A DNA stretch of 64,000 nucleotides from the NCBI GenBank assembly GCA_964526695.1, contig CAZGJA010000091.1:82036-146035 (forward strand), in the 5' to 3' direction. The notes under the pieces are model-generated. The model searched no databases. It saw only the letters and a list, made by a program, of their open reading frames with translations, and was not told where the DNA came from. The position numbers and the translations under genes are program-made. This DNA comes from an uncultured Phycisphaeraceae bacterium (GTDB lineage Bacteria > Planctomycetota > Phycisphaerae > UBA1845). Shown here piece by piece: positions 2,806-62,151 of this stretch (its first letter is position 1; every line of letters begins with the position of its first letter).

Positions 2806-2837
2806 CCGTTAACAGCGAGCAGCCAGCAGCTCCTTTC

Positions 2838-3035: not shown

Positions 3036-3221
3036 GGCGTTGATTCCCGGCGGCGGCTACCGCCGCCCCGTTCGACCCCCGAGCAGCACCGTCATCGCAT
3101 CGAGCAGCGTCTTCATCGTCGCGATGAGTTGGCGAACGGCCCGCCGGGTGGCGCGCCAACCCGGCGGGACCAGCTCCTGCGTCCGAATCGTGATCTTGCT
3201 GACCGTCGAGTACGCCATGAT

Positions 3222-3602: not shown

Positions 3603-4195
3603 GGGTCCTTCCTTCCGTGAAAAAACCGTGAATTCCGCCACGCCAAGGCTTCCTGCCCGGCTGTCGAGAGCGGTTATAGACGTGGATTTCTCTGGACCAA
3701 GCCGAAACCCCGGATTTCAGAAAGATTCTTTGGATTGGGATTGCCGACGGCACCGTCGACGATTACGCGAAGGCGACGCCAAACAAAAAGGCCGCACGGG
3801 TTCATGGCCCCATGCGGCCTTGTTCGCTCGTTCGAGAGCCGGCAGGGATCAGCCGCCGACCGCTCGCCTCCGGGAAGTCACGGCGTGGTTGTCCTACCCG
3901 TTACTTACGCGAAGCAGGCACGATTTCAACGAAGATTCCACGGTTCGCGGTGATTTGTTCCACGGGTAGATACCGGGCTCCTCCTTTCGTAGGTACTTTC
4001 CCAGCTAGAATTGGGTCAGGCCCCCCGTTGAAAGCCCTACGGAACTTTCTCTTATTGCTCTTGAACGCCTGGGGAGGAGCTGTTACACTGTTGCTACGGG
4101 AGGGCGATCTTCCGGACCTCCGGCGGGCACCCGCAGCCTGAGACTCCGTGTCGAGGAGCTGTTGGGCATCCGAGGCTAATTCGAGGAGCCAACTC

Positions 4196-43704: not shown

Positions 43705-45399
<1,695 letters not shown>

Positions 45400-45735: not shown

Positions 45736-46008
45736 TCATCCGTCTTCCGTCAAATCCACGTCCCACTCCTCAGGTGTATAGGTGAGCAGCATGCTGATCA
45801 GCTCAACTTCCTGAGGGGCTATCTGCGCTTTACGCACGGCCTCGTCGAGGGCGTCACGCATGAGCCGCCGGCGATCGGGATAATCCAAATCGAGGAACTT
45901 GGGTGAAATCACGTGACCGCAAATCCGTCCATTGGGCAGCGTATCAAGGCGTGCCTCACCCCCAAGCGTACCGACGAGGATGGATTTCACTTTTTCCTGG
46001 AGGTGCAT
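45736..46008 (-). CDS. Hypothetical small protein (90 aa) between groEL and groES
   Basis: Protein-like composition. Overlaps the next ORF by 22 nt. Confidence 0.35.
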   Translation of the reverse strand: MHLQEKVKSILVGTLGGEARLDTLPNGRICGHVISPKFLDLDYPDRRRLMRDALDEAVRKAQIAPQEVELISMLLTYTPEEWDVDLTEDG

Positions 46009-46448
46009 ACTCTCTCGCCTCTGCTCACGACAATCTCCGCCGCGTTAAGGACCGAACGCGCATTCGCTTTCTCAGGGTCGCCGACAACGCGCCTGCCTCG
46101 AATTCTGCGCATCCGACCCGTTCGCTGGAGTTGTTTCGAGAACCTGGCGGAACCCGTAAACCGCAGATCATTTCTCCAGATCACCGCCAATTCGTTCACC
46201 GCATCCGCGACGGCGTCATCCTCGCTTCTATGGAACATTCCCAGATCCCGCGCCTGCTTCAGGTGCTCACGAAGATCATGACCCAGCTCCAGTTCACGAT
46301 GCCTGACGATCAAGCAGCGCAGCATGCTTTGGGCGGCGCGACCCGCAAGATAGATGGCGCCACGCCACCGTCCTGATTCGTAAAGCTCATTGGCTTCGTC
46401 AAGACGGCAAAGTGCGCCTTCTCGATAGTCCTGCGGGCCAAGGGACAT
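45987..46448 (-). CDS. Hypothetical protein, possibly HEPN-like (153 aa)
   Basis: Helical. AIYLAGRAAQSMLRCLIVRHRELELGHDLREHL resembles HEPN helices with an R-x5-H motif. Starts 2 nt after the groES stop. Confidence 0.35.
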   Translation of the reverse strand: MSLGPQDYREGALCRLDEANELYESGRWRGAIYLAGRAAQSMLRCLIVRHRELELGHDLREHLKQARDLGMFHRSEDDAVADAVNELAVIWRNDLRFTGSARFSKQLQRTGRMRRIRGRRVVGDPEKANARSVLNAAEIVVSRGERVCTSRKK

Positions 46449-46450
46449 CG

Positions 46451-46749
46451 CTACTTCTCAATCACCCCCAGCACGTCCGACTCGTCCATGATCAGGTACT
46501 CGTTGCCCGACATCTTGATGTCGCTGCCCGCGTAGCTGGTGAACACGACCTCGTCGTTGACCCGCAGTTGCATCGGGCTGCGCGTCCCGTCATCCAGCAG
46601 CTTGCCCGTGCCCACCGCCAGAACGATGCCGCGCTTCGGCTTCTCCTTGGCTGTGTCGGGAAGGACGATGCCCCCCGCCGTCTTCTCCTCCGCCTCCAGC
46701 CGCTTGACGATGATCTTGTCGTTGAGGGGCTTGATGTTCAGCTTGGCCA
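46451..46749 (-). CDS. groES: Co-chaperonin GroES
   Basis: GTG start 46747..46749 with AGGAGG SD. (V)AKLNIKPLNDKIIVKRLEAEEKTAGGIVLPDTAKEKP. Confidence 0.85.
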
Positions 46750-46998
46750 CGTGGTCAGTCCTCCTGCACGAAAAACCGGGGTGTCGCAAAAGTCAAAACG
46801 CACCTCTCCCATCCCTCCGCGATGCAACCCATGTGCCGCCGCCAGCGCCGTCCACGGGATGCCGATCGGAGAGCATAACTTATTTGCCAGAAACAGGATA
46901 GGGCGGGGCGTCGCGGTCGGGGCAGCGTCTATCGCCGCAGCGCCCGCTGCAATCTTGGCACAGGCGGTAGCCGTCGCGGTGCGACCTCTGACAGATTG

Positions 46999-49791
46999 TC
47001 AGCCGCCTTCAGGCCGATCTGGAAGCGGCTTCGGTGGGCCGGTCAGCTTCGCTCGAACCTCCTCCCGCAGCCACTCGATCGCCCCGCGTTCGTCGTCGCT
47101 GAATCGCCGGATGACCTCCCAGACGGGACGGGCGGCGTCCAGGTCGAGTGATCGGCTCAGGCTCGCTTCCGCGTCTTTCAGGGTTCCCGGCTCGCTCGAA
47201 GCGTCGCCGGCCTGCAGTTGGCACTCGCCCAGCAGCCGCCACGCGGAGGGGTCCGACGGGTAAAGCTGAACCACGCGCTGGGCGGCCTCCACTGCGCGGC
47301 GCAGGTGTTCCGCACGCTGCGTCCCGGTTGGCTCGGATTCAGACGTCAACCGTGAGGCCGCGGCCTGTTCGATGCGCGCGACGCGTCGTGAAATCTCCGC
47401 GCGAGAAGGATCGCGCCGCTTCGCCTCGTCCAATGCGACGCGGACTTCGCCGAACCACTCCGGCGAAACGGGCAGAGCACCGCCCACGCACAGCGACGCC
47501 AGCCATTCGCCCTGCTCCACGCACGGCGTCGGATCCCATGAGTCCAGCCGGGCCGCGTCGTCGAATCGCCCCAGCACGCGCCGCACGGCCGCCTCCACGA
47601 CATCGCGCCGCGCCGCGTCGTTGGCGAACTGCCGCGGAGGCACGCTTCGCCTCGCCAGCTCTCGCGCCTCGGCGAGAGCGCGGTTCGACTGCCCCACGAC
47701 CCATGTCTGCCACGCCGTGAAGCCGAGCAGGATCAGGATCGCCGACGTCACCAGCGAGCAAGCCACGCGGGGGAAGGGTGTTCTGTGTGCGGCTTCGTCT
47801 TGTCTCTCGGTTCGCGAACTCGGCGCCGCAGTTTCCATGGGCGTGTGCCGCATCGAAGCGGCCAGCGCATACAGCGCCAGCGCCGTCGTGGCCGACGCGG
47901 GAACGAACAGCGCGAAGTTAACGGTGTCCTGAATGACAAACGCCGCAAGCCCCGCGCAGGCGCCCGCGAACATCAGAGGTTCGGTCGCGGCGAAAGGGAC
48001 CATCGACGCACAATCCCCGGCCTTTCGTTGTGCCGATGAACTGCGTTCCACGGAAGCGCCGGGCAGAGCAACCAGCAGGAACGCGGCGATCCAAACCGGC
48101 AGCGCGACGTAGGTCTGCAGCAGCATGAACGCCCCGCTGTCGGCTCCGAGCAGCGGCAGGCGGATGCCGAAGATGACCAACGCCAGCACGAGCGATTGAA
48201 TGACGACGGTCCGTCGCGAAGGCGGATCCCGATGGGCTTCGAGCGGGAGAGCTACGCGAGTTGCTTCGGTCCCGGGGATCGAAACCCCGTCGCCCGCGCG
48301 CTCGCCACCCGCGCGCCCGCCGCCCGGACCGCCGACTCCCGCCAGCCACGCGCTTCCGCCGATCAGCAGCGTCATCAGGCCCGCCAAGCCGAGCACGCCG
48401 AAATCCGCCGCCGCCTGCACGACGAAGTTGTGCGGGCTGGCCACTTCCTCCGGGCTTTCGATCGACTTGTATTGAACGTAGTGGCGGCCGAAGTTTTCGC
48501 GCCCCACGCCGGTCCAGAGGTGATCGCGAATCATGCCCGCCGACGCCGTCCAGTATTGCCAGCGGAAGTTCAGCGACGCGCCCGGCAGCGACTTGTGATA
48601 AAGCCCGTGTCCGATCGCCGCCGCCGCGCTCATTGCCACGCCCAGCCACGCGGCCACAAACACCGCGCGCCGCCGTCGCTCCACAAAAACGCGCCATGCG
48701 GCCCATCGCCGAAGCACCGCCGCGCCGACCCATACCACCCCGACCAGAGCAAGGCTCGCCAGTGCCCCCGTGCTGCCGGTAAGGAACATCGCGAGCACGA
48801 GCATCGCAATCAGCAGGATGCTCAGCGCGCCGACCCATCCGGCCCCTTGCGAGTCGTCAGCGCTGGAGAGGACGCCCTCAGAACCCCCCACGCCAGTGGG
48901 GGGCCGACCTTCGGCAGTGTTCCGCGGCGCATTCGCGATCATGCGCTGCGGCGCATGATCCGAGCCGCGACCGTAAGGGAGCGCGCCCTGCGGCGCATGA
49001 TCCGTGCCGCGACCGTCAGGGAGCGGTTCCGACGGGTTCCGAGACACCGCTTCCTTACGGGCGCGGCTCTGATCGGGCACCGCTTCCTTGCAGGCGCGGC
49101 TCTGTTGCCGCGATCGCGCTGCGGCGCCAGCGGCTACCGCGCCCGTCAGCGCCAGTGCGACCATCGCCAGGTATCCGCCGGCCACGTTGCCGTGATAGAA
49201 GAACCCGTCCGGCTCCCCGGCGCGCAGCCGCGCCTCGTACATGCGCACGATGGCCGAGTCGAGCGGCACGCCGCGCTCCCGCCAGAACTCCGTGCGATGC
49301 TCCTCGTAAAACCGCCGCGTTTCCGGCAGCGAGAAGTAGGCCTCGTCGAGGCACTCCACCGCGTTCGCCGACGCCGAGGCGACGATCACGCCGAGCAGCA
49401 CGCGCCGCCGCCATCGCGTGGTCACTTCCTGCACCAGCGCCATCGCCAGCACCGGCAGGCACAGCCAGTCGATCGCGGCATTGACCGCCACGCGCTTCTG
49501 CTGCGCGAACGCGCACGACACGCCCGCCGCGACGACCAGCAGCAGGAATCCCCACTCCAGCCCCGTCCGCCGATACGTCCGCGTCCACGCCCGACGCGCG
49601 ATCAGCCCGGTGGCGGCCGCGAGAATCGCCAGATCCACCCCCAGCGTCCGCACCGGCATCGCCGGCAGAAGCTGCGAAACGCCGGACGAAATCACGTCCT
49701 GCGCGGAATCAAACGTCTCCCCGATCAGAGGCCGCAGACCCACCACGACGAGCAGGATCAGGAGCGGAATGCGACGGAGGATGAGGTTCAC
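46999..49791 (-). CDS. O-antigen ligase/Wzy_C-like polytopic membrane protein with C-terminal TPR region. The start is uncertain.
   Basis: Many TM helices. PHNFVVQAAADFGVLGL is an O-antigen-ligase-like loop. C-terminal TPR-like helices are present. There is an internal tandem duplication at 48950..49100. Upstream of GTG 49789..49791 the track ORF overlaps the next gene. Confidence 0.65.
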   Translation of the reverse strand: MNLILRRIPLLILLVVVGLRPLIGETFDSAQDVISSGVSQLLPAMPVRTLGVDLAILAAATGLIARRAWTRTYRRTGLEWGFLLLVVAAGVSCAFAQQKRVAVNAAIDWLCLPVLAMALVQEVTTRWRRRVLLGVIVASASANAVECLDEAYFSLPETRRFYEEHRTEFWRERGVPLDSAIVRMYEARLRAGEPDGFFYHGNVAGGYLAMVALALTGAVAAGAAARSRQQSRACKEAVPDQSRARKEAVSRNPSEPLPDGRGTDHAPQGALPYGRGSDHAPQRMIANAPRNTAEGRPPTGVGGSEGVLSSADDSQGAGWVGALSILLIAMLVLAMFLTGSTGALASLALVGVVWVGAAVLRRWAAWRVFVERRRRAVFVAAWLGVAMSAAAAIGHGLYHKSLPGASLNFRWQYWTASAGMIRDHLWTGVGRENFGRHYVQYKSIESPEEVASPHNFVVQAAADFGVLGLAGLMTLLIGGSAWLAGVGGPGGGRAGGERAGDGVSIPGTEATRVALPLEAHRDPPSRRTVVIQSLVLALVIFGIRLPLLGADSGAFMLLQTYVALPVWIAAFLLVALPGASVERSSSAQRKAGDCASMVPFAATEPLMFAGACAGLAAFVIQDTVNFALFVPASATTALALYALAASMRHTPMETAAPSSRTERQDEAAHRTPFPRVACSLVTSAILILLGFTAWQTWVVGQSNRALAEARELARRSVPPRQFANDAARRDVVEAAVRRVLGRFDDAARLDSWDPTPCVEQGEWLASLCVGGALPVSPEWFGEVRVALDEAKRRDPSRAEISRRVARIEQAAASRLTSESEPTGTQRAEHLRRAVEAAQRVVQLYPSDPSAWRLLGECQLQAGDASSEPGTLKDAEASLSRSLDLDAARPVWEVIRRFSDDERGAIEWLREEVRAKLTGPPKPLPDRPEGG

Positions 49792-49825
49792 GGGATGTGC
49801 CGGGCGCGCGGATGCGACGCGGTGC

Positions 49826-50728
49826 TTACCACCAGATGGACTTCCATGCCCAGTAGCATACCACCCACGCGACGGTCCACGCCACACGCGCCGCCCAGAA
49901 CTCCGGCGTGATCCGTCGCGAACCCCGAACCGTGGTGGCAGGCGTGATGGCGCTGCCGCATTCCGGGCAGCGCGGCGTCGTCAGACCGGTGAGGTTGTAG
50001 CCGCAGGGTCGGCAGTGCGGTGTCGTGCCTTGGCGCGGCCACTGGCGAACCATCGGCACGGCGACGGACACGATCGCGCCAAGGATGGACGCCATGCCGG
50101 CTAGCGCGTGCATCGCTGTGAGGCCCGAAACCAAAGTCGCCGTCACCCACCCCATGTCGCTTAGCACGTCGTCATAGGACTTGTCGCGGACGTCAACAAC
50201 GCGATATGAGATTCCGTCCGCCTCGTACGCCTTGGTGAGGCGCCTGACGAAATCCTCCGTGCGATATCCAAGCCCGGCCTCGATGGTTACCGGCTGGGTG
50301 CGGAGAAAGCCCGCTTCACACGTCACACGCCAGGTGAACGCGACCCGATCCGGCTCCTCGCCGTTGTATTGTTCAGAAGCGGTGTTGGCCATCCTGTAAT
50401 AGTCCGGATCACGCAGACTCGTGGAGCTGGGCCCACGTAATCCGCTCAGTCGATTGGGCTTGGCCAGGCAAGCGGGATCCTGCATCACCGACTTGATCCA
50501 GTCCCGGTATTCCTGTTCGAATTCTGTGCAGATCTGATCGGTCGTCGCGGTCAACTTGACAAAGGAGTTCAGCCTCAGCAAGCCCGCACGGGCAAGCAAC
50601 TTCGTGGTGACGAGAGCCGTCAATGCGATGGCGATGAGAACCCAGTAGCGCACCGGAGACATCTGCCTGACGCCCTCAGGGCGTTCCTCCACACGTAACT
50701 CAGGGAGCACAGGTCGATCGCCCGCCAT
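49826..50728 (-). CDS. Membrane protein with periplasmic domain and C-terminal CxxCGYNL-x8-CPECG zinc ribbon
   Basis: Start taken at internal ATG 50726..50728. TM helices are present. HCRPCGYNLTGLTTPRCPECGSAIT is a paralogous motif to 16562..17056. Confidence 0.45.
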   Translation of the reverse strand: MAGDRPVLPELRVEERPEGVRQMSPVRYWVLIAIALTALVTTKLLARAGLLRLNSFVKLTATTDQICTEFEQEYRDWIKSVMQDPACLAKPNRLSGLRGPSSTSLRDPDYYRMANTASEQYNGEEPDRVAFTWRVTCEAGFLRTQPVTIEAGLGYRTEDFVRRLTKAYEADGISYRVVDVRDKSYDDVLSDMGWVTATLVSGLTAMHALAGMASILGAIVSVAVPMVRQWPRQGTTPHCRPCGYNLTGLTTPRCPECGSAITPATTVRGSRRITPEFWAARVAWTVAWVVCYWAWKSIWW

Positions 50729-50891
50729 CTGACTGGTCTCACCCTTCAAAACGGCGTCCCGCATTCTGGGCAGCGACGCTCCGGCAGCCCTCGGAAATTG
50801 TACCCGCAACGCATGTGGTCGCATTCTAGCCGACGGCTTACGTATTCGAGGCTGCTTCTGAACCGATAATCGAACCTGCACGCCTCCAGGG

Positions 50892-52652
50892 TTGACCTCC
50901 GGCCGCGGCACGCCTAATAATCAGCAACGACAACCCCCTTTTGCATCGAGCGCGCCGGCCAGGGAAGGACGAGTGTCCGTGGGTTGGACAACGAGACTGC
51001 GCGCCGGGTGCGCGTTGCTGCTTTGCTTGACCGCGTGGGGGCTTACCAGGGCCGCCTCGCGTCAGGAGGGGTCCGCGCCACCCTCGCCGCTGGGACCGTC
51101 AGAATCCGCCGCCTGCCAGCCTGAATGGAACGCCGAGCAAGCTCAGTCGAACGCTCATCTGCCTGCACTGAACGTCGATCAGACTCCACCGAACGCCGAT
51201 CAGCCTCCATCGAATGCCCAGCAGCCCCCCTCGAGCGCCAAGGAGCCTGGGCTCAGCGACAAGAAAGCCGGCCCGGCCTCGGCGCGGCTGAACCTGCTGG
51301 TCGTCACGATCGACACGCTGCGGGCCGACCACCTCGGCTGCTACGGCTACTTCCGCGACACTTCGCCGACGATCGACGCCCTCGCGCGCGATTCCACCCT
51401 GTTTACGCGCTGCCTCGTGCCCGTGGCGCAGACGCTGCCCAGCCATCTCTCGCTGATGACCGGCGTCTATCCCCTCGAGCACGGCGTCATTTCCAACCTC
51501 GAAAAACCCGGCGGGCAGAACTACAGCTCCACGCCGCAGCTTCGCACGCTGGCCGAGTTCCTGCACGAGCAAGGCTACCGCACCGCCGGCTTCGTCAGCG
51601 CCACGCCGCTGAAGCGCGAGTCGGGCATCGCTTCAGGCTTCGATCACTTCAGTCAGCCGGACCACGCGCGACGGCTCGGCGCGGAGACGACCGAGGCCGC
51701 GCTCGAGTGGCTCGGCGAGAAACCGGCCGAACCGTTCTTCGCATGGGTTCATTACTTCGATCCGCACGCGCCGTATGACGCGCCCTCGCCGTACGATCGC
51801 CAGTTCACAACGGACGAAAAGCTTGAGGCGCACCTGACGCAGCGGCAGGTTCCGGCCCGTGTTCAGAAGCAGCGCAGCGACAAGCGCGTTGTGCCGGAGG
51901 AGGACGCGTGGGACACGCGCAAGGCCGTCAACGGTTACGACGGCGAGATCCGCTACACGGACGAGCAGGTCAGGACGCTGCTGGCGCGGCTGCGCGAGGC
52001 GGGATTGAACGAGCGGACGCTGATCGTGCTGACGGGGGACCACGGCGAGGGGCTCGGGCAGCACGGAATCGTGATGCACGACGCGATCTGGGATGAGCAG
52101 CTTCACGTGCCGCTGATCATCCACGTTCCGGGCCGCTCCGCGCAGCGCGTGACGGCGGCGATGCGTTCCATCGACATCCTGCCGACCGTGCTGGCGCTGA
52201 TGCCCGGCTTGCCCGCGGCGCCGTTCATCCAGCAGTGTCGCGGGTCCAACGCGCTGAACCGTACGGAGCCGGTCGATCTGTTCGCCCAGGAGCCGCAGGG
52301 TCGCCGCGACGCTCGCACGCTTGTTTCAGGCGAGTGGAAACTCGTCGTCGAGGACAAGGTCGCGCGGTTGTTTCACCTGCCGACGGATCCGTTCGAGCTG
52401 AAGGACGTGGCGAAAGAAAAACCGGAAGTGGCGGCGCAGCTCAAGCAGCGTCTGACGGAGCTGGTCGAGGGTCAGATAACCGCGGCGAAACGATATCTTG
52501 CGGCTCGCCCCGCGGCGCCGGGGGCGTCGGACGGAGCCAAGGATGCCAAGCGGCGCGAGGAATTGCACGGGCTGGGTTACCTCGAATCGGATGATGAAGA
52601 AGAGGCGGAGAGTGATTCGAAGAAGAAGAAACCATCTCGCGGCTCGCCTTGA
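50892..52652 (+). CDS. Sulfatase-fold (alkaline-phosphatase superfamily) enzyme lacking the FGly motif (TLPSH instead of C/SxPxR). Secreted. Lys-rich acidic tail.
   Basis: LLVVTIDTLRADHLGCYGY and QTLPSHLSLMTG. The signal peptide begins near GTG 50973 (GGAAGGA SD). The C-terminus is DDEEEAESDSKKKKPSRGSP. Confidence 0.8.
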   Translation: MTSGRGTPNNQQRQPPFASSAPAREGRVSVGWTTRLRAGCALLLCLTAWGLTRAASRQEGSAPPSPLGPSESAACQPEWNAEQAQSNAHLPALNVDQTPPNADQPPSNAQQPPSSAKEPGLSDKKAGPASARLNLLVVTIDTLRADHLGCYGYFRDTSPTIDALARDSTLFTRCLVPVAQTLPSHLSLMTGVYPLEHGVISNLEKPGGQNYSSTPQLRTLAEFLHEQGYRTAGFVSATPLKRESGIASGFDHFSQPDHARRLGAETTEAALEWLGEKPAEPFFAWVHYFDPHAPYDAPSPYDRQFTTDEKLEAHLTQRQVPARVQKQRSDKRVVPEEDAWDTRKAVNGYDGEIRYTDEQVRTLLARLREAGLNERTLIVLTGDHGEGLGQHGIVMHDAIWDEQLHVPLIIHVPGRSAQRVTAAMRSIDILPTVLALMPGLPAAPFIQQCRGSNALNRTEPVDLFAQEPQGRRDARTLVSGEWKLVVEDKVARLFHLPTDPFELKDVAKEKPEVAAQLKQRLTELVEGQITAAKRYLAARPAAPGASDGAKDAKRREELHGLGYLESDDEEEAESDSKKKKPSRGSP

Positions 52653-52675
52653 CGGGCGCTTGGTAACCCTAGGGC

Positions 52676-52694
52676 ACCGGTTTCCAACCGGTGG
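52676..52694. repeat. Conserved GC hairpin element caccggtt-tcc-aaccggtg (family of 3)
   Basis: Perfect 8-bp stem with 3-nt loop. Copies at 54215..54232 and 59400..59419. A degenerate second hairpin is at 52700..52720. Confidence 0.6.
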
Positions 52695-52695
52695 A

Positions 52696-54141
52696 GTGGG
52701 GCACGGGTTTCCATCCCGTGCATGGCAGACCCTGCGCAGCCGCACAGGCATCCTCTGCCTGGTGCTGGCTCTCCTGCCCGCCCTCTGCCAGGCACAGACG
52801 ACACCCAGCGAAAAACCGCCGCTGAACTTCCTGCTGGTGTCCATCGACACGCTCCGGGCGGATCACGTCGGCGCCTACGGCTACTTCCGCGCCACGACGC
52901 CGGCGCTCGACGCGCTGGCGAAAGAAGGCATCCTCTTCGAGCGCTGCATCAGCCCGCTGGCGCGCACCACGCCGTCCCACGCCTCGCTGCTGACCGGGCT
53001 GTACCCCATCGAACATGGGCTGATCGACAACATCACGCACGAACGCAACCTGCTCGTCCTGTCCGACGACGTGGAGACCTACGCCGAGGCCGCGCGATCC
53101 GCGGGCTACCAGACGGCCGCGTTCATCAGCGCCGCGCCGGTCAAGCGTGAGACGGGTCTGTCCGCCGGCTTCGACGTGTGGGACGAGCCGGAGGCGAGCC
53201 AGCGCCGCGCCGACGAAACCAACGAGAAACTTCTGCCCTGGCTCGCCAAGGCGAAAGACGCGCCGTTCTTCGCCTGGGTCCACTACTTCGATCCGCACAC
53301 GCCGTATCGCCCGCCCGCGCCGTTCGACGGGATGTTCAAGAGCGACGACGCGCTGCGCGCTTACATGACGGAGCGGAAGTTCGCGGACAAGGCCGAGAAG
53401 CAACACGCAGAAGGCGACATCAAGGACGCGAAGGCGTGGGACAGCGAGGAGGCCATCAACCGCTACGACGGCGAAGTCCGCTACGTGGACGATCAATTCG
53501 CCCGCGTCGTGGCCGCGCTCAAGGAGGCCGGCGTGTGGGATCGCACGGTCGTCGTACTGAAGTCGGATCACGGCGAGGGTCTGGGGCAGCACGACTGGCC
53601 CAACCACGGCGGATTCTGGCGGGAGCAGTTGCACGTGCCGCTGATCATGCGCCTTCCCGGCGTCAGCGCTCGGCGCGAGCCTGCGCCGATTTCCACCGTG
53701 GACATCCTGCCCAAACTGCTCGCCATCTGCGATCGGCTCCCGAGGGCGAAGTTCTCCGCGCAAGCGTCGAGTCTGCCGTCGGACACCGCGGGCGTCATCT
53801 ACAGTCAGACGCCCGGAAACAGCGGCTCGACGATTCGCACGCTCACGAGCGAGCGCTGGCGACTGGTCCGTCGCCCCGGCAAGGGCGAGCTGCTGTTCGA
53901 TCTGTCCGCGGACCCCTTCGAGCTGAAGGACGTGGCGTCGTTGCACAAGGAAGAAGGGGCACGCCTGCGCAAGCAGCTCGATGCGATCGTCGCGGCGCAG
54001 TCGGAGAACGCGCGGCGATTCAAGCCCGCCCGAGCGGAACCCGCCCGCCGCCAGCGCGTCGATCAGCTCAAGGAGCTGGGGTACATCGAAACGGAAGGCG
54101 AATCGCAAGAAGAGGAGGAAGCGGGAAAGAAGAAGCCTTGA
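52696..54141 (+). CDS. Second sulfatase-fold enzyme (tandem paralog, TTPSH at the nucleophile position). The start is uncertain.
   Basis: FLLVSIDTLRADHVGAYGY and RTTPSHASLLTG. Signal-like ILCLVLALLPALCQAQ. Candidate starts are GTG 52696 or ATG 52591, which overlaps the upstream gene. Acidic-Lys tail EEEEAGKKKP. Confidence 0.7.
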   Translation: MGHGFPSRAWQTLRSRTGILCLVLALLPALCQAQTTPSEKPPLNFLLVSIDTLRADHVGAYGYFRATTPALDALAKEGILFERCISPLARTTPSHASLLTGLYPIEHGLIDNITHERNLLVLSDDVETYAEAARSAGYQTAAFISAAPVKRETGLSAGFDVWDEPEASQRRADETNEKLLPWLAKAKDAPFFAWVHYFDPHTPYRPPAPFDGMFKSDDALRAYMTERKFADKAEKQHAEGDIKDAKAWDSEEAINRYDGEVRYVDDQFARVVAALKEAGVWDRTVVVLKSDHGEGLGQHDWPNHGGFWREQLHVPLIMRLPGVSARREPAPISTVDILPKLLAICDRLPRAKFSAQASSLPSDTAGVIYSQTPGNSGSTIRTLTSERWRLVRRPGKGELLFDLSADPFELKDVASLHKEEGARLRKQLDAIVAAQSENARRFKPARAEPARRQRVDQLKELGYIETEGESQEEEEAGKKKP

Positions 54142-54368
54142 GAAGTTTCTGCAACGCCGTGCGGCGCCGGCTCCCAACGGATCGCTGCAGCACAGGTTCT
54201 GAAGCGGGTGTGGCGCCGGTTTTCAACCGGTGACTGGCCCACGAGTTCTTCCACCTGTGCAAGGCAGAATCCTGGCGTTCGCTGATGCATGGAGCAGGCG
54301 GCTCACGGCGCCGTCCGATCGAATACGAATCGGAGATTCTCGCAGCTGGCGGCTTCCGGCAACACGAC

Positions 54369-57317
54369 ATGGCCACGTCCGACGACAACTCGAGCATCGA
54401 CGCCAACGCCGTCGGGGCGGACGACGCTTCTGCTCGCACCGCATTCGTCGTCTCGCGCGCAGCGGTGGGTTGCGCCTGCGCATCCGCGGTTGCGGCGGTC
54501 GTTTTCGTGGTCTCGCTCCTCGTGCTCCTGGAATGGCCCACCACGCAAAACATGCGCACCGCGGACGACCGGTTCGCGGCCATCAGCCTCCTCAGGGGCG
54601 AGCCCCTCATCACCGCCAAGGGGGAGAAGTACGGCAAGACGCCGCCCATCTACCCGGTTGCGCTGGCAGGGTTGCGCCTGCTCGGCTTTGAGTGGTGGAC
54701 GTGCGTGGGTCTGATCAATGCGCTGGCGTTCGCCGCGGGCGTGCTCGCCGTTCACGGGCTGGCGAGGCTCCTGGGCCTGCGCACCAGTCGCTGGCTTGTC
54801 CTGGCGTACCTTTGCTTCGGCCCCATCTATTACATGTTCCGTGAGGCGAGACCCGACATCATCTTCGCCGTCTGCGGGATCGGCGGCGTGGCGCTGGCGA
54901 CGGCGTATGCGCATCGACGCACCCTGCCGCTGCTGCTGGCGCTGGCGGTCATTTGCAGCCTCGCGGCGTTGAGCCGGTACATGGCGATCCTCACGCTGCT
55001 TCCGCTCGCGGGGGTGGTGATCCTGCTGGCGCGCCACGGCTCCTGGTCGCGCAAGGCCGCGCACGTGGCGCTCTTCTGCCTCATCGCGGGCGGTCCGATC
55101 GTCGGCTGGCTCATCCGCACAGAGAGAGTAACACAGCATTACACAGGCATGGACCGCTGGCGCGACCGCAAGCCGGCCGACGAAACGCTGACCACATTCG
55201 ACAACAACGTACGGTTCATGGCGCGGGCGTTCTACATCGACTTCCTGGCATGGGAGGACTTCGCGCAGCTCAACGTATTGAAGGGGACTCACGAGATCGA
55301 GCACGAAGGTGTGGTAGTTCTCATAACGTGCGCCCTGGTCTTGATCCTGGCGGGCATCGCGGTCGCTCGCCGCCGTGCCGTCCGCAACAAGCTCCGAGCG
55401 TGGCTCCTGCGATCAGGACGACCGCGAACGGCGCTGCTCATCACCGCGGCCTACATCCTGCTCTACCAGGCCATGATGCTCGTCTTGTGGACCGTCGGCA
55501 ACAACGACCCGATCGACTGCCGGTTCCTGGCGCCTTCGTACTTCCTGCTCGTCGTTCTCGGCGCAACGCTGCTGACGGTCCTCTGGCGTGCCGGGCCGGG
55601 GCTGCTGTCGCGCGGAGCGGTCGTCGCGGCCGCAGCCGGTTTCCTGACGCTCCAGACGTGGAAGACCGCCGCCACGTGGGAAATCGTCAGCGACAACTCC
55701 GCCAGCCCCTGGGTAGAGGATCCGGATCAGTTCCTGGAGGCCATGGGCAAGAAGGGAATTGAGGCTCGCATCGAAGATCGTCTCGCCGAGCGCGGACGGA
55801 CGAAAGGCATCCCGGCCAGAATGCAAAAGCGCCTTGAGAACAGGGGCAAGGTTCTCGATCCCACAGAGCAGAAGACGGATCGGGTGCAGGAACTCGCCGA
55901 GCGGATAAGGAACGACCCGACGCGAAAACAGAAGCCGCCCGAACAGGTCAAAGCCGACACGGGCAAGAATCGCGAGGCGCTCATGGCGGAGCGCCGCCGA
56001 CGGCGCGAGGCTGAAGCCGAAAAAAAACAGCGCGATAGCGCCGCTGGCGACGGGGAGCCCGATGCGATTCAGGCTGATGCCGAGGGGCAACCTGCGGAGC
56101 CGCCCACGTCGCTTCCGCCGCTGGAGTACGTCCGCCTCTCGCCGCCATCCCATTGGACGCCCTACGTCCCGGCGACACCCCTCCCAACGCTCCTCGCCGC
56201 CTTCCATCTCGGCGAAGCGCAGCGGGGCAAGGACCGGGGCTTTGTTCAAGTGTTTCAGATGGAGTCCCGTTCCAACGCCGATCCCGATCCGTTCAAGCCG
56301 TGGCTTGCGGGATTCGTGGGTGAGGAGGAGGGCGAGCGGTTTACGCCGACCAGCACGGCGCTGAGAATCCACGGCATCCCGGTGCGCATGGTGGAGCTGA
56401 CGGGCAAGTTCCGCTCGGATGATCCTGAGAATCCACAAGGCACTTGCTCGTTGATCGCGGCGGAATTCCGCCATCCCCGCGCGACGGTGGTCGTGGTGGC
56501 GCTCGGCCCTCGCAAGATCGTTGCCGACGAGCAGGACGTGATCGTGGCCTACCTGATGAGCGCCGAGAGCTTGGAACCGATCGCGCCGCCGCCGCCGCCG
56601 CCGACGGACGAAGCGTCTGCTGATGACCAGCCGGAAGATCCCTCGCCCGCTGAAACGCCGGACGGCGCTCCTTCCGTCGTGGCGCCGGTCGATGAACCCG
56701 CGGTCGAGGCGCCGCCGCCCGCCGCCGCCGCCGGGCCGGAACCGCCGGGCGCTTCGACAGATGATCCACCCGCCGATGACGGGCCCCTGAGCCGGTCGGT
56801 CACCTTTGCATTCGAGCCTCCCTGGGAAGTGTATGCCCCGAAGAACGCCGGCGACGGCTTTCGTCAGGGTTTCTTCCTTGACCCTCAGGACCGGACGCGT
56901 GCTTCGGCCAAGCTCGTGGTGACCCATATCCCCACGCATTCGCCCGATCACGCGGCGCAGATCGCCCGGTGGTTGAAGGACTTCACCGTGCTGGAAAAGC
57001 ACGTGGTGCATGATGCGCCGACGCCCGCGCGGGGGCGCATCGGCCTCCCGGTGGCGATTGTCGAAGCAGCCGGCACGTATGCGCCGCCGACGTGGGCGAC
57101 GCCCGTGCCCGACTACTTCTTGATCGGCGCCGTGATCGTCCTGCGGGATGGGATGTACACGGTCAAAGCCACGGGACCGCGGACTCAGATCGAGGCGCAG
57201 CGCGCGAAGATTCTGGCATTCATTGGGAGCGGACGCGGCGACGCCGGCGAAGGCGCCCTCATCCCGGAAGCAGTGAAACCCGCGCAGGAACCGCCGCACG
57301 ACGCGCCTCAGAAGTGA
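54369..57317 (+). CDS. GT39/GT83 (ArnT/PMT-like) membrane glycosyltransferase with about 550-aa C-terminal extension
   Basis: GEKYGKTPPIYPVALAGL with multiple TM helices is ArnT-like. The extension has a KR/E charged helix, a PPPPPP segment and an acidic Pro/Ala low-complexity region, then a globular C-domain. The start is ATG 54369 or 54285. Confidence 0.65.
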   Translation: MATSDDNSSIDANAVGADDASARTAFVVSRAAVGCACASAVAAVVFVVSLLVLLEWPTTQNMRTADDRFAAISLLRGEPLITAKGEKYGKTPPIYPVALAGLRLLGFEWWTCVGLINALAFAAGVLAVHGLARLLGLRTSRWLVLAYLCFGPIYYMFREARPDIIFAVCGIGGVALATAYAHRRTLPLLLALAVICSLAALSRYMAILTLLPLAGVVILLARHGSWSRKAAHVALFCLIAGGPIVGWLIRTERVTQHYTGMDRWRDRKPADETLTTFDNNVRFMARAFYIDFLAWEDFAQLNVLKGTHEIEHEGVVVLITCALVLILAGIAVARRRAVRNKLRAWLLRSGRPRTALLITAAYILLYQAMMLVLWTVGNNDPIDCRFLAPSYFLLVVLGATLLTVLWRAGPGLLSRGAVVAAAAGFLTLQTWKTAATWEIVSDNSASPWVEDPDQFLEAMGKKGIEARIEDRLAERGRTKGIPARMQKRLENRGKVLDPTEQKTDRVQELAERIRNDPTRKQKPPEQVKADTGKNREALMAERRRRREAEAEKKQRDSAAGDGEPDAIQADAEGQPAEPPTSLPPLEYVRLSPPSHWTPYVPATPLPTLLAAFHLGEAQRGKDRGFVQVFQMESRSNADPDPFKPWLAGFVGEEEGERFTPTSTALRIHGIPVRMVELTGKFRSDDPENPQGTCSLIAAEFRHPRATVVVVALGPRKIVADEQDVIVAYLMSAESLEPIAPPPPPPTDEASADDQPEDPSPAETPDGAPSVVAPVDEPAVEAPPPAAAAGPEPPGASTDDPPADDGPLSRSVTFAFEPPWEVYAPKNAGDGFRQGFFLDPQDRTRASAKLVVTHIPTHSPDHAAQIARWLKDFTVLEKHVVHDAPTPARGRIGLPVAIVEAAGTYAPPTWATPVPDYFLIGAVIVLRDGMYTVKATGPRTQIEAQRAKILAFIGSGRGDAGEGALIPEAVKPAQEPPHDAPQK

Positions 57318-57403
57318 ACTCCCGGCGAAGACGCAAGCCTGTCCCGCCGGGACGACCCAAAGTCGTCGGTGGACCGCGTCTCCACGCCGGTTCCCTGGCT
57401 GGA

Positions 57404-57859
57404 ATGTACCGTGTTCACCTGGTCGTCGCCCGGACTGCGTCTGTCCCCGCCGAACCCGACCCGGATTTCCGACTCGACTCCATCCTCGCCGCCGACCGTG
57501 ACGACCGCATCGGCGTTGAGATCGCACTCTGCCGCCCGGAGGGGCTGTGCGGGACGTGGGATGAGAGCGTCCAGAAGTGGCTCAAGTCGTTTTCGCCTTC
57601 GCGCGGCGAAACGTCCGTGCTCATCGCGCAGGAGGATCTGCTCATGGACGACCTGCCCGTGCTGCTGGTGGAAGTCGTCGGCGATTACCGGGCCGGCAAC
57701 GCCGATGAGCCGGAACGGGACACGGCGATGATCCTCGCGCAGATCGTCCACCCCCAGGCGACGTATCATCTTCGCGCCATGGGTCCCGCGAAGTTCGTGC
57801 TGAGCGAGCGGGAGAACATCCTGGAGTTCCTCCGCAGCCTGCGACAAACGGACCCGTGA
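57404..57859 (+). CDS. Hypothetical protein (151 aa)
   Basis: Internal ATG 57404 of ORF 57092..57859. The upstream part of the ORF is Arg-rich and overlaps the GT gene. Confidence 0.35.
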   Translation: MYRVHLVVARTASVPAEPDPDFRLDSILAADRDDRIGVEIALCRPEGLCGTWDESVQKWLKSFSPSRGETSVLIAQEDLLMDDLPVLLVEVVGDYRAGNADEPERDTAMILAQIVHPQATYHLRAMGPAKFVLSERENILEFLRSLRQTDP

Positions 57860-57920
57860 GGGTCCGTACACGCATGGCGCACGGCTCCGATTCCTCGTGG
57901 AGGTTTCCTCGCTCGCCAGC

Positions 57921-57955
57921 GGGTGGCACGGTCTGGCGTACTCGCCAGGCCGTGG
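57921..57955. repeat. REP-like dispersed palindromic element copy
   Basis: gggtggcacggtctggcgtactcgccaggccgtgg. Core hairpin ctggcg-tact-cgccag. Confidence 0.7.
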
Positions 57956-58120
57956 GGAACGAGTAGCCAACGCCGGTTCGCGCCCTACATGGGTACGCTG
58001 CTGCGGACCCGTGCCGCGCGCCGGTTCGGCCACCCTCGGAATGCGACGGCCTTGACCTCTGACGGTCCGCAGGTGCGCATCGCTTGACGCCGCCCACGCG
58101 CGCCCGGACTATGATCCCCC

Positions 58121-59191
58121 ATGCGTTACGCCCTCATCATGGCCGGTGGAGCGGGGTCGCGGCTGTGGCCTTTGAGCCGGCGGCAGCGACCCAAGCAGTG
58201 GCTGCGCCTGTTCGGCGGCAAGAGCCTGCTGCGCCAGTCCTTCGAGCGCGCCGCCGCCATCCTGCCCGTCGAGGCGATCCACGTCATCACCAGCGACGCG
58301 CTCATCGATCTCACCGCCGAGGAGCTGCCCGAGCTGCCGCGGGAAAACCTCATCGGCGAGCCGATGGGGCGCGACACCGTCAACGCCATCGGGCTGGGGG
58401 CGGCCGTTCTGGTCGAGCGCGACCCGGACGCCACCATGGCCGTGTTCACTGGCGACCACGTCATCACGCCGATCGACCGCTTCGCGCACGCGGTGCGCAG
58501 CGCCTTCGACAGCATCGGCGAGCACCCGGAGGCGCTGGTCACCTTCGGCATCCGCCCGACCAGCCCGCACACCGGCTACGGCTACATCGCCCGAGGCGAG
58601 CGTCTGCGCGAGCGCGTCTTCCGCGTTCACGAGTTCGCGGAGAAACCCAACATCGCCGTCGCCACCAAGTACGTCTCCAGCGGGCTGTACTACTGGAACA
58701 GCGGGATGTTCGCCTGGCGCGCGGACGCGATCCTCGCGCAGCTCAAGAAGCACCTGCCGCACTCGCACGACGCGCTGCGCGAGCTGGGGCGTTGCTGGAA
58801 CACGCCGCAGCGCGCGGAGAAGCTTCGCCTTCTCTACCCGACGCTGATGAAGATCTCCGTGGACTTCGCCATCATGGAGCGCGCCGACGACGTCCTCGTC
58901 GTCGAGATGGACTGCAATTGGGTGGACGTGGGCGCGTGGACGGCGCTGGAATCGCTGATGGACAGCGATCCGCTGGGCAACGTCGCGGCCTGCAAGCACG
59001 CGATCACGCTCGGCTCGCGCGGCAACATCCTCGTGTCCGAGGACGACCACCTGATCGCCACCATCGGCGTGGACGACCTCGTGATCGTACACTCGCCGGA
59101 CGCCACGCTCATCTGCACCAAGCGCGACGCGCAGGGCATCAAGGAACTCGTCGACAAGCTCCGCAAGGACTTCGAGGGCCGGTTCCTCTGA
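58121..59191 (+). CDS. manC: Mannose-1-phosphate guanylyltransferase (GDP-mannose pyrophosphorylase)
   Basis: MRYALIMAGGAGSRLWPLS...KQW is the NTP-transferase signature, followed by a left-handed beta-helix C-domain. Confidence 0.85.
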   Translation: MRYALIMAGGAGSRLWPLSRRQRPKQWLRLFGGKSLLRQSFERAAAILPVEAIHVITSDALIDLTAEELPELPRENLIGEPMGRDTVNAIGLGAAVLVERDPDATMAVFTGDHVITPIDRFAHAVRSAFDSIGEHPEALVTFGIRPTSPHTGYGYIARGERLRERVFRVHEFAEKPNIAVATKYVSSGLYYWNSGMFAWRADAILAQLKKHLPHSHDALRELGRCWNTPQRAEKLRLLYPTLMKISVDFAIMERADDVLVVEMDCNWVDVGAWTALESLMDSDPLGNVAACKHAITLGSRGNILVSEDDHLIATIGVDDLVIVHSPDATLICTKRDAQGIKELVDKLRKDFEGRFL

Positions 59192-59593: not shown

Positions 59594-60063
59594 GTTCTCA
59601 TAGTTACTGCTGTGTGCCGAATGCCGGGGGCGACATGCCGCTCGGCAGCGGGGGAACCAGCGCGGCGCGGAGGGGCGACCTTTCGCATCGCAGGGGCGAA
59701 TCCCGGTGGACCGGGACGCTGAATCAGCGCAGCGAGCCCGTCAGCTTACCTCGCAGGCGAACGCTGGAGAATCTTCATGTTTATTGCCATTCCGCGCGGG
59801 CATGGCGCCCCGCAGGCCGCTCTCACTTTTCGCCACGATCAGGCCGTGCCCGGAGGATGATCCTTCGGGCCTGAGGGTTTCGCCGCGTGCCTTGTGCCGC
59901 GCCCGGTCCGTCGTTTCTCGCGATGGAAACGTCGTCCGCGCGGAATGATGTATGCGCGCGAGCTCTTCTGCCCTGACCGTCGCTTCGCATCCTCATGCGC
60001 GTAGAATGAAGTTCACCGCGGGCATCGGCGCCGCGGATTCACCATCGCATTGGAGACCCTTCC

Positions 60064-62151
60064 ATGTTTCTTGCCAGTGTCAACAGTACGTTGATCACCG
60101 TCGGCGCGCTGCTGTTTGTTCTGACGATTCTCCTTATCACGGGCCTGGGCGGCATCCGCTTTATCCCCAACAAGCGGATCGGCATCGTCGAAAAGCTCTG
60201 GAGCGGCGCAGGGTCCGTTCAGAGCGGTCTGATCGCGCTGGAGGGCGAGGCCGGTTTTCAACCCGGCATTCTGCGCGGCGGTCTGCACTTTCTGACGCCG
60301 TTCCAGTACCGGGTGCACTCGATGCCGCTGGTGACGATCGCGCAGGGGCAGATCGGCTACGTGTTCGCGCGCGACGGAAAACCGCTGCCGCCGACGCAGA
60401 CCCTGGCGTCCAACTTCGACGTGATGGGCTTCGAGGATGTGCGCGCCTTCCTCACCGGCGGCGGGCAGCGCGGTCCGCAGCGCAACGTCCTGCGCGAAGG
60501 CACGTACGCCATCAACATCGCGCAGTTCGCCGTCGTCACGCGCGATCAGCTTTATTACCTGCCGCTGGAGCGCGACGACCACGCCGTCTTCAAAAACATG
60601 CAGTCGGAGATCTCCGCGCGGGACGGCTTCGAGCCGGTCATCATCCGCGGCAGCGACGACATGATCGGCATCGTCACGGTGCACGACGGGCCGTCGCTGC
60701 CCGCCGGCGAGCTGATCGCGCCCGTCGTCGGCGATGATCCCGCGGAAGCGGAGACGTTCCACAACAACTTCCAGGACGCGGAGAAGTTTCTGCAAGGCGG
60801 CGGCTGTCGCGGTCGGCAACTCCAGGTCATCGTGGACGGCACGTACTACCTCAACCGCCTGTTCGCCACCGTGGAAATGCTGCCGAAAACGGTGATCGAA
60901 GTCGGCAATGTCGGCGTGGTCGTTTCGTACACGGGCGAGCGCGGCGCGGACCTGTCGGGCACCGAGTACAAGCACGGCGAGCTGGTGCGCCCCGGTCAGC
61001 GCGGCGTCTGGTCCGACCCGCTCATGCCCGGCAAGTACGCGTTCAACAGTTACGCGGGCAAGGTCGTCGCCATCCCGACCACCAACTTCATCTTGAAGTG
61101 GATTCGCAACGAAGCGGGCCAGCATCGCTTCGATGAGAACCTCAGGGAAGTGTCGCTGATCACCAAGGATGCGTTTGAGCCGTCGCTGCCGCTGTCGGTC
61201 GTGGTGCACATCGACTATCGCAAGGCGCCGCTGGTGATCCAGCGTTTTGGCGACGTCAGGAAGCTCGTCGAGCAGACGCTGGACCCGATGGTCTCCGCGT
61301 ACTTCAAGAACATCGGGCAGACGCGCACGCTGATTCAGCTTCTTCAGGATCGCGCCATGATCCAGAAGCTCGCGGGCGAGGAGATGCAGGAGAAGTTCGG
61401 GCATTACAACCTCGAGCTGGAGGAAGTGCTGATCGGCACGCCGACGTCCTCCGCCGGCGACGACAAGATCGAGAACATCCTCACCCAGCTTCGCCAGCGA
61501 CAGATCGCCGAGGAGCAGGTCGAAACCTACGCCCGGCAGGAAAAGGCCGCCGTCAAGGAGCGCGAGCTGCGCGAGGCCGAAGCCAAGGCGCGGCAGCAGC
61601 AGCACCTGACGGAGAGCGAGCTGGCCATCCGCGTGCAGGAAAACCAGGGCAAGGCCGAGTACCAGCGCGCTCTGCAGCAGGCCGCGCAGATGCGGGCCAT
61701 CGCTGAAGCCGAGGGCGCTCGAATCCGCACCCTGGCGGAAGCGGACGCGGCGAAGACCCGCGTCACCGGCGAGGCCGAGGCGGACAAGACCGCGCGCATC
61801 GGCGTCGCGCAGGCGGTGGCCATCGAGGAGCAGGTCCGGGCGTACGGCGGTCCGCAGTACCAGATCACGCGGCAGGTGATGGAGCGCTTCGCCGAAGCGA
61901 TCCAGCACTCCGGCGTGGACCTTGTGCCGCGCGTGGTGATCGGCGGCTCGGGCAACGGCGACGGGAAATCCGGCGGCGTCATGGGCGGCAACGTCATGGA
62001 AGGCCTGCTCGCCATGCTGCTGTCGGAGAAGCTCGGCCTGCCATCAGCGGGCGCGACATGCGAGTCGAACCCGCTGGCGGCCAAGCTGAGGCAGGAGGTC
62101 CGCGATTCGCTAAAGAGCGACGGCGCGCCAAAGGCAACAACGAGGATCTAG
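60064..62151 (+). CDS. Flotillin-family SPFH/band-7 protein
   Basis: N-terminal TM helix, SPFH domain and a long Ala/Glu/Gln coiled coil (AEAEADKTARIGVAQAVAIEEQ). Confidence 0.85.
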   Translation: MFLASVNSTLITVGALLFVLTILLITGLGGIRFIPNKRIGIVEKLWSGAGSVQSGLIALEGEAGFQPGILRGGLHFLTPFQYRVHSMPLVTIAQGQIGYVFARDGKPLPPTQTLASNFDVMGFEDVRAFLTGGGQRGPQRNVLREGTYAINIAQFAVVTRDQLYYLPLERDDHAVFKNMQSEISARDGFEPVIIRGSDDMIGIVTVHDGPSLPAGELIAPVVGDDPAEAETFHNNFQDAEKFLQGGGCRGRQLQVIVDGTYYLNRLFATVEMLPKTVIEVGNVGVVVSYTGERGADLSGTEYKHGELVRPGQRGVWSDPLMPGKYAFNSYAGKVVAIPTTNFILKWIRNEAGQHRFDENLREVSLITKDAFEPSLPLSVVVHIDYRKAPLVIQRFGDVRKLVEQTLDPMVSAYFKNIGQTRTLIQLLQDRAMIQKLAGEEMQEKFGHYNLELEEVLIGTPTSSAGDDKIENILTQLRQRQIAEEQVETYARQEKAAVKERELREAEAKARQQQHLTESELAIRVQENQGKAEYQRALQQAAQMRAIAEAEGARIRTLAEADAAKTRVTGEAEADKTARIGVAQAVAIEEQVRAYGGPQYQITRQVMERFAEAIQHSGVDLVPRVVIGGSGNGDGKSGGVMGGNVMEGLLAMLLSEKLGLPSAGATCESNPLAAKLRQEVRDSLKSDGAPKATTRI

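Follow-up and report, generated by a model that had tools for sequence, protein, structure and literature searches.

The stretch of DNA analyzed here (64,000 nucleotides, hereafter the window) belongs to an uncultured Phycisphaeraceae bacterium (GenBank assembly GCA_964526695.1, contig CAZGJA010000091.1, positions 82,036 to 146,035) and contains a locus in which two adjacent genes, referred to as A and B, encode secreted proteins of sulfatase fold with threonine at the position of the catalytic formylglycine (FGly), followed by a gene for a divergent membrane protein of the GT-C glycosyltransferase type. The locus is bordered by groES (46451-46789) on one side and a Band_7 gene (60064-62151) on the other. 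Between these borders lie, in this order, a gene for a Wzy_C protein with tetratricopeptide repeats (TPR) and an open reading frame (ORF) with a zinc-ribbon motif, both on the reverse strand, and then A, B, an ORF of 1010 aa, a short ORF and manC, all on the forward strand. Every ORF listed in an earlier interpretation made from the letters of the DNA (the sequence-only reading) was found in place. Loci compared with the window carry L-labels; the closest, L003, is from a Phycisphaerales metagenome-assembled genome (MAG; GCA_020852275.1) and shows the same gene order with a ManC 97% identical. The two genes under study are:

50979 to 52652, forward strand: gene A, sulfatase-fold Thr enzyme of 557 aa, with a signal peptide, a low-complexity linker of about 90 aa, the catalytic domain, a C-terminal LGY and an acidic/KKKK tail.
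52696 to 54141, forward strand: gene B, sulfatase-fold Thr enzyme of 481 aa, with a signal peptide; ancient paralog of A.

Both genes start with GTG, at 50979 for A according to an identical public gene call (P0001, 557 aa) and at 52696 for B according to the public call P0272 (481 aa), that is, downstream of the starts implied by the longest ORFs. Each protein has a signal peptide and no membrane domain, and public annotations describe them as "sulfatase" or "arylsulfatase." The Sulfatase family PF00884 is matched strongly by A (7e-49, 167.2 bits) and B (1.9e-48, 165.8 bits; gathering threshold 25 bits), and PF01663 is also matched above its gathering threshold of 23 (54.0 bits and 2.6e-14 for A; 66.8 bits and 3.3e-18 for B). 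The two proteins share 45% identity across 451 residues. A promoter-like site occurs directly upstream of A (50892-50921), and neither the A-B interval nor that from B to the GT-C gene holds a terminator, although the counts of such signals are not above chance.

At the position of the FGly motif, A has T-L-P-S-H (in the context AQ-T-L-P-S-H-LSLMTG, within AQTLPSHLSLMTG; Thr codon 51432-51434) and B has T-T-P-S-H (AR-T-T-P-S-H-ASLLTG, within ARTTPSHASLLTG; Thr codon 52966-52968). The sequence-only reading had placed this Thr at the nucleophile position and the His at that of the Arg recognized by the formylglycine-generating enzyme (FGE), and phmmer alignment to the FGly enzyme SpAS1 (4UPI) bears out both assignments, with Thr in line with FGly and His in line with the Arg of C-x-P-S-R. 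A second motif of the form C/S-x-P/A-x-R/K was sought in mature A and mature B and found in neither. The result that the sequence-only reading had named as its refutation, a Thr off the nucleophile position with a Cys/Ser motif elsewhere, did not come about. FGly chemistry, which the same reading had already ruled out, is thus excluded by the Thr at the nucleophile position, the His in place of Arg and the lack of an alternative motif; neither FGE nor the anaerobic sulfatase-maturating enzyme (anSME) could mature these proteins as they do the FGly enzymes most similar to them.

The scaffold itself is that of the two-domain FGly sulfatases, closest to the arylsulfatase/phosphonate monoester hydrolase (AS/PMH) clade and of the PMH/choline-sulfatase type. 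An AlphaFold2 (AF2) model of A (pLDDT 92.2, pTM 0.91) was compared with the PDB by Foldseek, and the best 50 matches were all S1 sulfatases or phosphonate monoester hydrolases, including choline sulfatase, ArPMH, SpAS1 and EfAS (TM about 0.67). The AS/PMH clade (SpAS1 4UPI, ArPMH 4UPH, SpAS2 4UPL, RlPMH 2VQR, choline sulfatase 6G5Z, EfAS 9KOQ) provides the best matches in both sequence (3e-33 to 4UPI) and structure (Foldseek E about 1e-26). Features in common comprise the two-domain fold, a first metal site of the Asp/Asp/His kind whose fourth ligand is His, not Asn, an Asn 21 residues past the nucleophile, an H-x-x-x-P-H element and a G-Y that closes the C-terminal helix. The [LMIV]-G-Y ending is kept in 118/120 homologs and occurs in SpAS1; helices near the C-terminus mediate oligomerization in several enzymes of this clade (PMC12421950). 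The acidic stretch and KKKK tail emphasized by the sequence-only reading are present on A, but among homologs they are a minority feature: an acidic stretch follows G-Y in 38/120, and acidic stretch plus basic run in only 10/120. With a pLDDT of about 50 in the AF2 model of A, the tail is a variable, low-confidence appendage that does not define these proteins.

The catalytic residues depart from this scaffold's usual chemistry. Residues are numbered here from the codon at window position 51276 of gene A (residue 1). In EfAS, the experimentally probed template is D20/C61/R65/K110/H112/H220/D311/H312/K324 (PMC12421950), and the corresponding positions in the family of A and B read D/T/H/S/x/H/D/H/H. 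The first Asp, HisB and the Asp/His pair are therefore kept, whereas C61 is replaced by T53, R65 by H57, K110 (LysA) by S108 and K324 (LysB) by H268; the HisA position is variable, and an Asp two residues before HisB is an invariant not seen in the AS/PMH clade. As judged by alignment, all of the cationic groups that hold the sulfate ester in S1 enzymes are gone from the Thr family, which retains the two-domain fold and metal site of the S1 class and lacks its FGly motif and its LysA/HisA/LysB set.

The overall fold, the S1 enzymes among the best sequence matches and the public annotations would all be accounted for if A and B were still sulfatases, employing Thr or a metal-bound water instead of FGly. 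This is very improbable given that Arg, LysA, HisA and LysB are replaced throughout the family and that even EfAS, the "Mn-dependent arylsulfatase," relies on Cys61/FGly; to our knowledge, no FGly-independent S1 sulfatase exists. EfAS had been an NCBIfam lead, and its use of Cys61/FGly led to its rejection as a precedent for a Thr enzyme. For a second NCBIfam lead, PhoY, the literature found deals only with phosphate signaling and metal/uranium resistance, none of it with a sulfatase-fold enzyme.

The Thr motif, described in the sequence-only reading for the tandem pair, proved to be common to the whole family. T-x-P-[STAV]-H occurs in 120/120 of the best database homologs, of which those that have a source name come from Planctomycetota (Phycisphaerae or Planctomycetes) or bear the arylsulfatase label only. 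Thr is likewise present in all 107 members collected from about 75 genomes of Planctomycetota, Acidobacteriota, Gemmatimonadota and Myxococcota, and a scan of one genome per species yielded at least 570 relatives in Planctomycetota, Acidobacteriota (Aminicenantes, Vicinamibacteria, Terriglobia), Gemmatimonadota, Myxococcota and Eisenbacteria. Thr for FGly is hence the signature of a large and widespread clade. Many of the distant members are 650-990 aa long with a C-terminal TPR domain, and many occur in tandem arrays (multi-copy at 17/77 loci). Arrays of three or four adjoining members are found in Acidobacteriota and related phyla (L023, 9887-18452; L056, 9767-16421; L013, 6644-12673). No curated NCBIfam model reaches its cut-off for the proteins of this family. 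That Thr can stand in place of Cys/Ser among PF00884 proteins is already known in general: according to SulfAtlas, Thr occupies this position in half of the PF00884 seed, a half not countable as sulfatase, and an oxidized Thr would yield a ketone, not FGly (PMC5066984).

Within the 107 members, D13, T53, H164, D255 and H256 are conserved without exception, H159 and H268 in 105/107, H57 in 104/107, D162 in 103/107 (Glu in the other four) and H263 in 101/107. These frequencies bear on whether A and B are enzymes at all. A weak similarity to YejM (1e-9 to PDB chains; 51-53 bits to NF038282) would agree with a non-catalytic role in binding or regulation, A and B then being pseudoenzymes that keep the sulfatase scaffold much as the periplasmic domain of YejM/LapC does. 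This idea has very little probability, since ten positions (one Thr, three Asp, six His) are shared by 94-100% of the members from the different phyla, as expected of an active metalloenzyme.

The residues that replace the sulfate-binding set have counterparts in phosphoethanolamine (pEtN) transferases. Alignment of the family profile to E. coli EptA by hhalign (probability 96.4%) pairs D13 with the Zn1 Glu and D255/H256 with the Asp/His pair, and matches two further His of EptA, the one in "GSHGP" to H164 and the one 12 residues past the DH pair to H268. Two corresponding His are conserved in MCR-1, EptC and LptA, and bind the second zinc in LptA (PMC5031297). A and B thus resemble EptA/LptA/MCR-1 (and LtaS, OpgB, BcsG) in having a Thr nucleophile on a PF00884 domain, a first metal site of an acidic residue, Thr, Asp and His, and, for EptA/LptA/MCR-1, two His at the same sequence positions ("..H..P" and DH+12). 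They differ from EptA/LptA/MCR-1 in having Asp for the Glu ligand, T-x-P-S-H instead of T-x-T-A-x-S-x-P around the nucleophile, an extra C-terminal sulfatase subdomain and no N-terminal five-helix membrane domain.

The analogy with EptA/LtaS/OpgB drawn in the sequence-only reading holds at the level of these residues; its extension to function does not fare as well. A and B might be phospho-group transferases that decorate an envelope glycan with pEtN, glycerol-phosphate or a similar group in the manner of EptA, LtaS, OpgB and BcsG, and both the EptA-like ligand pattern and the linked GT-C enzyme, which would modify envelope glycolipids as ArnT does, are compatible with such a role. As far as is known, all characterized transferases of this type reach the lipid donor by means of an N-terminal polytopic membrane domain, while the N-terminus of A and B offers nothing beyond a cleavable signal peptide. 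Their scores are 46 and 40 bits against the pEtN-transferase model NF028537 (cut-off 500) and 43 and 27 bits against the LtaS model NF053595 (cut-off 970), and their overall fold is of the larger two-domain S1 sulfatase type. Transfer is for these reasons unlikely. Hydrolysis, by a phosphodiesterase or phosphatase, is favored as more economical than transfer from a lipid donor because of the signal peptide alone and the scores far under the transferase cut-offs.

A soluble hydrolase is also suggested by comparison with nucleotide pyrophosphatases/phosphodiesterases (NPP, PF01663), which are soluble and secreted phosphodiesterases, as A and B are predicted to be. Besides scoring above the PF01663 gathering threshold, the proteins have a nucleophile segment almost identical to that of NPPs (T-x-P-x-H-x-x-x-x-T-G-x-Y-P-x-x-H-G-[IV]-x-x-N), with Asn at +21 (T53 and N74 conserved), and the N-terminal 112 residues match ENPP1 (8e-5) and a Xanthomonas NPP (2e-4). 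Unlike NPPs, A and B resemble sulfatases in their second half, and the zinc site formed in NPP by D-x-x-x-H plus a distal His has no clear counterpart in their sequence. When the family was aligned to an NPP-type protein by hhalign, only the DHG region was aligned (probability 51), with D162-P-H164 and H268 as candidate ligands of a second zinc.

The relationship between A and B was examined in the four loci that carry both. In a neighbor-joining tree the four A-orthologs form one clade (bootstrap 99) and the four B-orthologs another (bootstrap 100); A and B are therefore ancient paralogs whose duplication is older than these lineages. At 27 positions each of the two clades is fixed for a residue of its own. 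These positions cluster at -1/+1 of the Thr and around His268, which suggests different specificities or a heteromer. The order A, B, GT-C protein is preserved in the window, L003, L091 (GCA_964648365.1) and L092/L093, that is, in four diverged Phycisphaerae genomes with different flanking genes, and in L091 and L092 the two paired genes overlap, by 4-14 nt. The GT-C homologs that follow the pair are 38-66% identical to the 1010-aa protein. The features of the GT-C gene are:

54369 to 57317, forward strand: membrane glycosyltransferase, a divergent member of the GT-C type (PMT_2/ArnT-like), which also contains a segment of charged helix, linkers rich in Pro and two PsbP/Mog1-like domains.
56118 to 56594, forward strand: PsbP/Mog1-like repeat copy 1 within the GT-C protein, an internal repeat by tblastn, blastp and alignment.
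56796 to 57257, forward strand: PsbP/Mog1-like repeat copy 2 within the GT-C protein (AF2 model pLDDT 78.8, pTM 0.77).
57404 to 57859, forward strand: remnant of PsbP-like repeat copy 3, within the short ORF 57092-57859.

The longest ORF of this gene (1010 aa) begins at 54285, and the L003 ortholog supports a start at 54369. Its product matches PMT_2 over the whole model at 8e-4 (20 bits), under the cut-off of 26.1. A word-indexed homolog search gave only three proteins, and an exhaustive profile search with the GT-C domain, used instead, gave 1623 relatives; 71 of these were sampled, and 32 belong to PF13231 (PMT_2), 6 to PF02366 (PMT) and 2 to DUF2142. The 1010-aa protein is consequently classed, by transitive homology through these profile relatives, as a divergent GT-C glycosyltransferase. 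The ArnT/GT39-like transferase of the sequence-only reading survives in this broader sense, but no specific similarity to ArnT was detected: direct homology to ArnT (GT83) was rejected, with an hhalign probability of 0.07 against E. coli ArnT and a Smith-Waterman z of -0.5 against shuffles, and the likeness to ArnT in a "D-[DE]-x-R-[YF]-A-x-I-S" motif seen by eye has no statistical support. As in ArnT/PMT_2 proteins the chain is polytopic (nine clear membrane segments by hydropathy, some others ambiguous), and a conserved acidic motif, N-M-R-T-A-D-[DH]-R, lies past the first helix.

Beyond its membrane domain the GT-C protein continues into a charged, helical segment that is conserved, linkers rich in Pro (PPPPPP among them) and a domain of about 150 aa that is repeated; the membrane side of this extension is a matter of prediction. 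Foldseek with the model of copy 2 returned cyanobacterial PsbP, MTC28, Apa, DcrB and EagT6 as best matches (TM about 0.55-0.6), together with LpqN, and the repeat is assigned on this modeled structure to the PsbP/Mog1 fold, which typically serves for binding in compartments other than the cytoplasm. Orthologs have one to three of these C-terminal domains, a point of difference from ArnT and PMT proteins, in which we know of no PsbP-like domain: one copy in L091 and L092, three in L003 and two plus a remnant in the window. The remnant corresponds to the ORF 57092-57859, listed in the sequence-only reading as a small unknown ORF and here recognized, not as an independent gene, but as the decayed third repeat of the GT-C gene. 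In L003 the ortholog is a single ORF of 1172 aa whose residues 1033-1172 align to the remnant, in another frame, at 79% identity; in the window this part is severed from the GT-C ORF by an in-frame TGA (57315-57317, Arg in L003) and a frameshift near 57420-57460, so that the truncation could be real decay or a MAG assembly error. In L091, 7 kb upstream of the A-B-GT-C cassette, there is a shorter paralog of the GT-C domain without a PsbP-like domain (P0123, 522 aa, 2164-3732).

On the basis of these data the explanation we favor, held with middling confidence, is that A and B are secreted periplasmic metal-dependent phosphoesterases on an S1 scaffold which trim a phosphate-linked group from a glycoconjugate glycosylated by the GT-C partner. 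Their predicted phosphate-ester chemistry is well supported by the residue pattern. In the proposed mechanism, Asp13, Thr53, Asp255 and His256 would constitute the first metal site, and His164 and His268, probably with Asp162, and with His57, His159 and His263 possibly nearby, would form a second metal site like that of pEtN transferases. The metal-activated Thr alkoxide, in the role of the FGly nucleophile, would attack a phosphate ester, and the resulting phospho-Thr intermediate would be resolved by water. The two genes would be transcribed together as non-redundant paralogs, followed by that of the GT-C glycosyltransferase with its PsbP-like domains. Because they are predicted to be co-transcribed and adjoin the GT-C gene, the most likely role of their products is the removal or trimming of a phosphate-linked group carried by the very periplasmic or envelope glycoconjugate to which the GT-C protein would add sugar.

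Several points weigh against this explanation. The second metal site is one that we infer from aligned residues. In the hhalign alignment the nucleophile of EptA falls four residues off Thr53, so that it is the alignments to sulfatases and NPPs on which the matching of the nucleophiles depends. A literature search for a characterized Thr enzyme of this clade found none. Linkage to the GT-C gene was found in one Phycisphaerae lineage only, and the genes that flank family members in other genomes (n=106) represent 153 Pfam families, none of them dominant, with no consistent glycan or other theme among the 106. Homologs of the Wzy_C and manC genes adjoin A and B only in L003, and since this genome is such a close relative of the window, their adjacency is not independent evidence. 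The envelope-glycan locus of the sequence-only reading accordingly contracts to the A-B-GT-C unit, which recurs in four diverged genomes, without Wzy_C and ManC and without the zinc-ribbon protein, which is not found even in L003. In L008, an unrelated genome, a pair that arose by independent duplication has as its neighbors GT2 genes, a gene for a Wzx flippase and one for a membrane protein of DUF6077. A connection with a glycan pathway thus holds in this lineage, by way of the GT-C gene, is hinted at by L008 and does not extend to the family in general. Taken together, the observation in the sequence-only reading was confirmed, and its interpretation partly supported.

The variety of genomic contexts raises the question of whether the adjacency to the GT-C gene means anything. 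A and B may instead be general secreted phosphatases or phosphodiesterases that scavenge phosphorus in the manner of PhoA, PhoD, NPP or PafA, as suggested by the soluble and secreted nature of the proteins, the spread of the family through phyla of soil and water with no preferred neighbor, the tandem arrays, which are typical of nutrient-acquisition enzymes, and a close homolog (P0010) that is a single gene amid housekeeping genes. Such a role does not easily explain why the A-B-GT-C order is held while the GT-C proteins have diverged and the flanks change, or why A and B have been kept distinct since before these lineages split; moreover, no pst or pho genes were seen among the neighbors at the loci examined. 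We regard scavenging as a doubtful alternative, though one to be reckoned with, and retain the trimming of a phosphate-linked group on a glycoconjugate as the preferred explanation.

More speculatively, and with low confidence, the T-x-P-[SA]-H family may be an unrecognized class, spanning several phyla, in which the sulfatase scaffold has reverted to a two-metal Thr phosphoesterase, and A and B with the GT-C/PsbP protein may represent an undescribed periplasmic dephosphorylation-glycosylation system in Phycisphaerae. Such a system would be akin in its logic to the dephosphorylation of lipid A and subsequent sugar addition in Rhizobium, or to the modifications made by ArnT and EptA. If true, the family would provide a clean natural case of an active-site switch from sulfate to phosphate on one scaffold of the alkaline phosphatase superfamily, needing few replacements (Cys to Thr, Arg to His, Lys to Ser and Lys to His). 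The chief use of the finding lies in this example and in the correction of annotations: thousands of environmental proteins from Planctomycetota, Acidobacteriota and other phyla are labeled "sulfatase" or "arylsulfatase" yet are unable to make FGly, and counts of sulfatase genes, widely used to infer the degradation of sulfated polysaccharides, are inflated by the Thr family. For Phycisphaerae, whose envelope glycans are almost unknown, the A-B-GT-C cassette offers a concrete entry point.

The remaining genes between the borders of the locus flank the conserved cassette:

46999 to 49887, reverse strand: Wzy_C (O-antigen ligase/polymerase-like) membrane protein with a C-terminal TPR region, outside the conserved cassette.
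49826 to 50911, reverse strand: membrane protein with a C-x-x-C...C-P-E-C zinc-ribbon motif, lineage-specific, with the real start probably near 50662.
58121 to 59191, forward strand: mannose-1-phosphate guanylyltransferase of the ManC type without the phosphomannose isomerase (PMI) domain.

The identification of the first as an O-antigen-ligase-like/TPR protein, proposed in the sequence-only reading, is supported by a Wzy_C match (PF04932, 1.5e-18), with weak TPR matches. The zinc-ribbon ORF, with the full motif C-R-P-C-G-Y-N-L-T-G...C-P-E-C-G, has no Pfam or NCBIfam match and no homolog in L003 or any other locus compared. In the otherwise syntenic L003 the gap between the Wzy_C gene and gene A is only about 460 nt, with the ORF missing between them, and because L003 has no counterpart it is considered a recent insertion or lineage-specific. 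The ManC protein matches PF00483 (NTP_transferase, 1e-39) and PF22640 (ManC beta-helix domain, 4e-15); its match to TIGR01479, the model for bifunctional ManC with guanylyltransferase and PMI activities, is under the cut-off (5.6e-87, 292.5 bits; cut-off 372.95) and spans model positions 3-348 of 467, which is the guanylyltransferase part only.

Other features of the window lie outside the locus. Between groEL (43705-45399) and groES, on the reverse strand, a gene for a HEPN-domain protein (153 aa, PF05168 2e-6) and an overlapping ORF of 90 aa (45736-46448) have the look of a toxin-antitoxin pair, an arrangement also present in L003. Past manC, a c-di-AMP riboswitch of the ydaO type (RF00379, 61.5 bits; gathering score 38) occurs at 59605-59774 on the forward strand, about 290 nt upstream of the 695-aa SPFH/Band_7 gene that borders the locus, and may by its position regulate that gene. 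The GC content of the window is high (about 65%), and its only low-GC stretch (0.54 vs. about 0.65) is filled by a gene on the forward strand (4148-9826) for a protein of 1892 aa with FG-GAP/VCBS repeats and a LamG domain, which may have been acquired horizontally.

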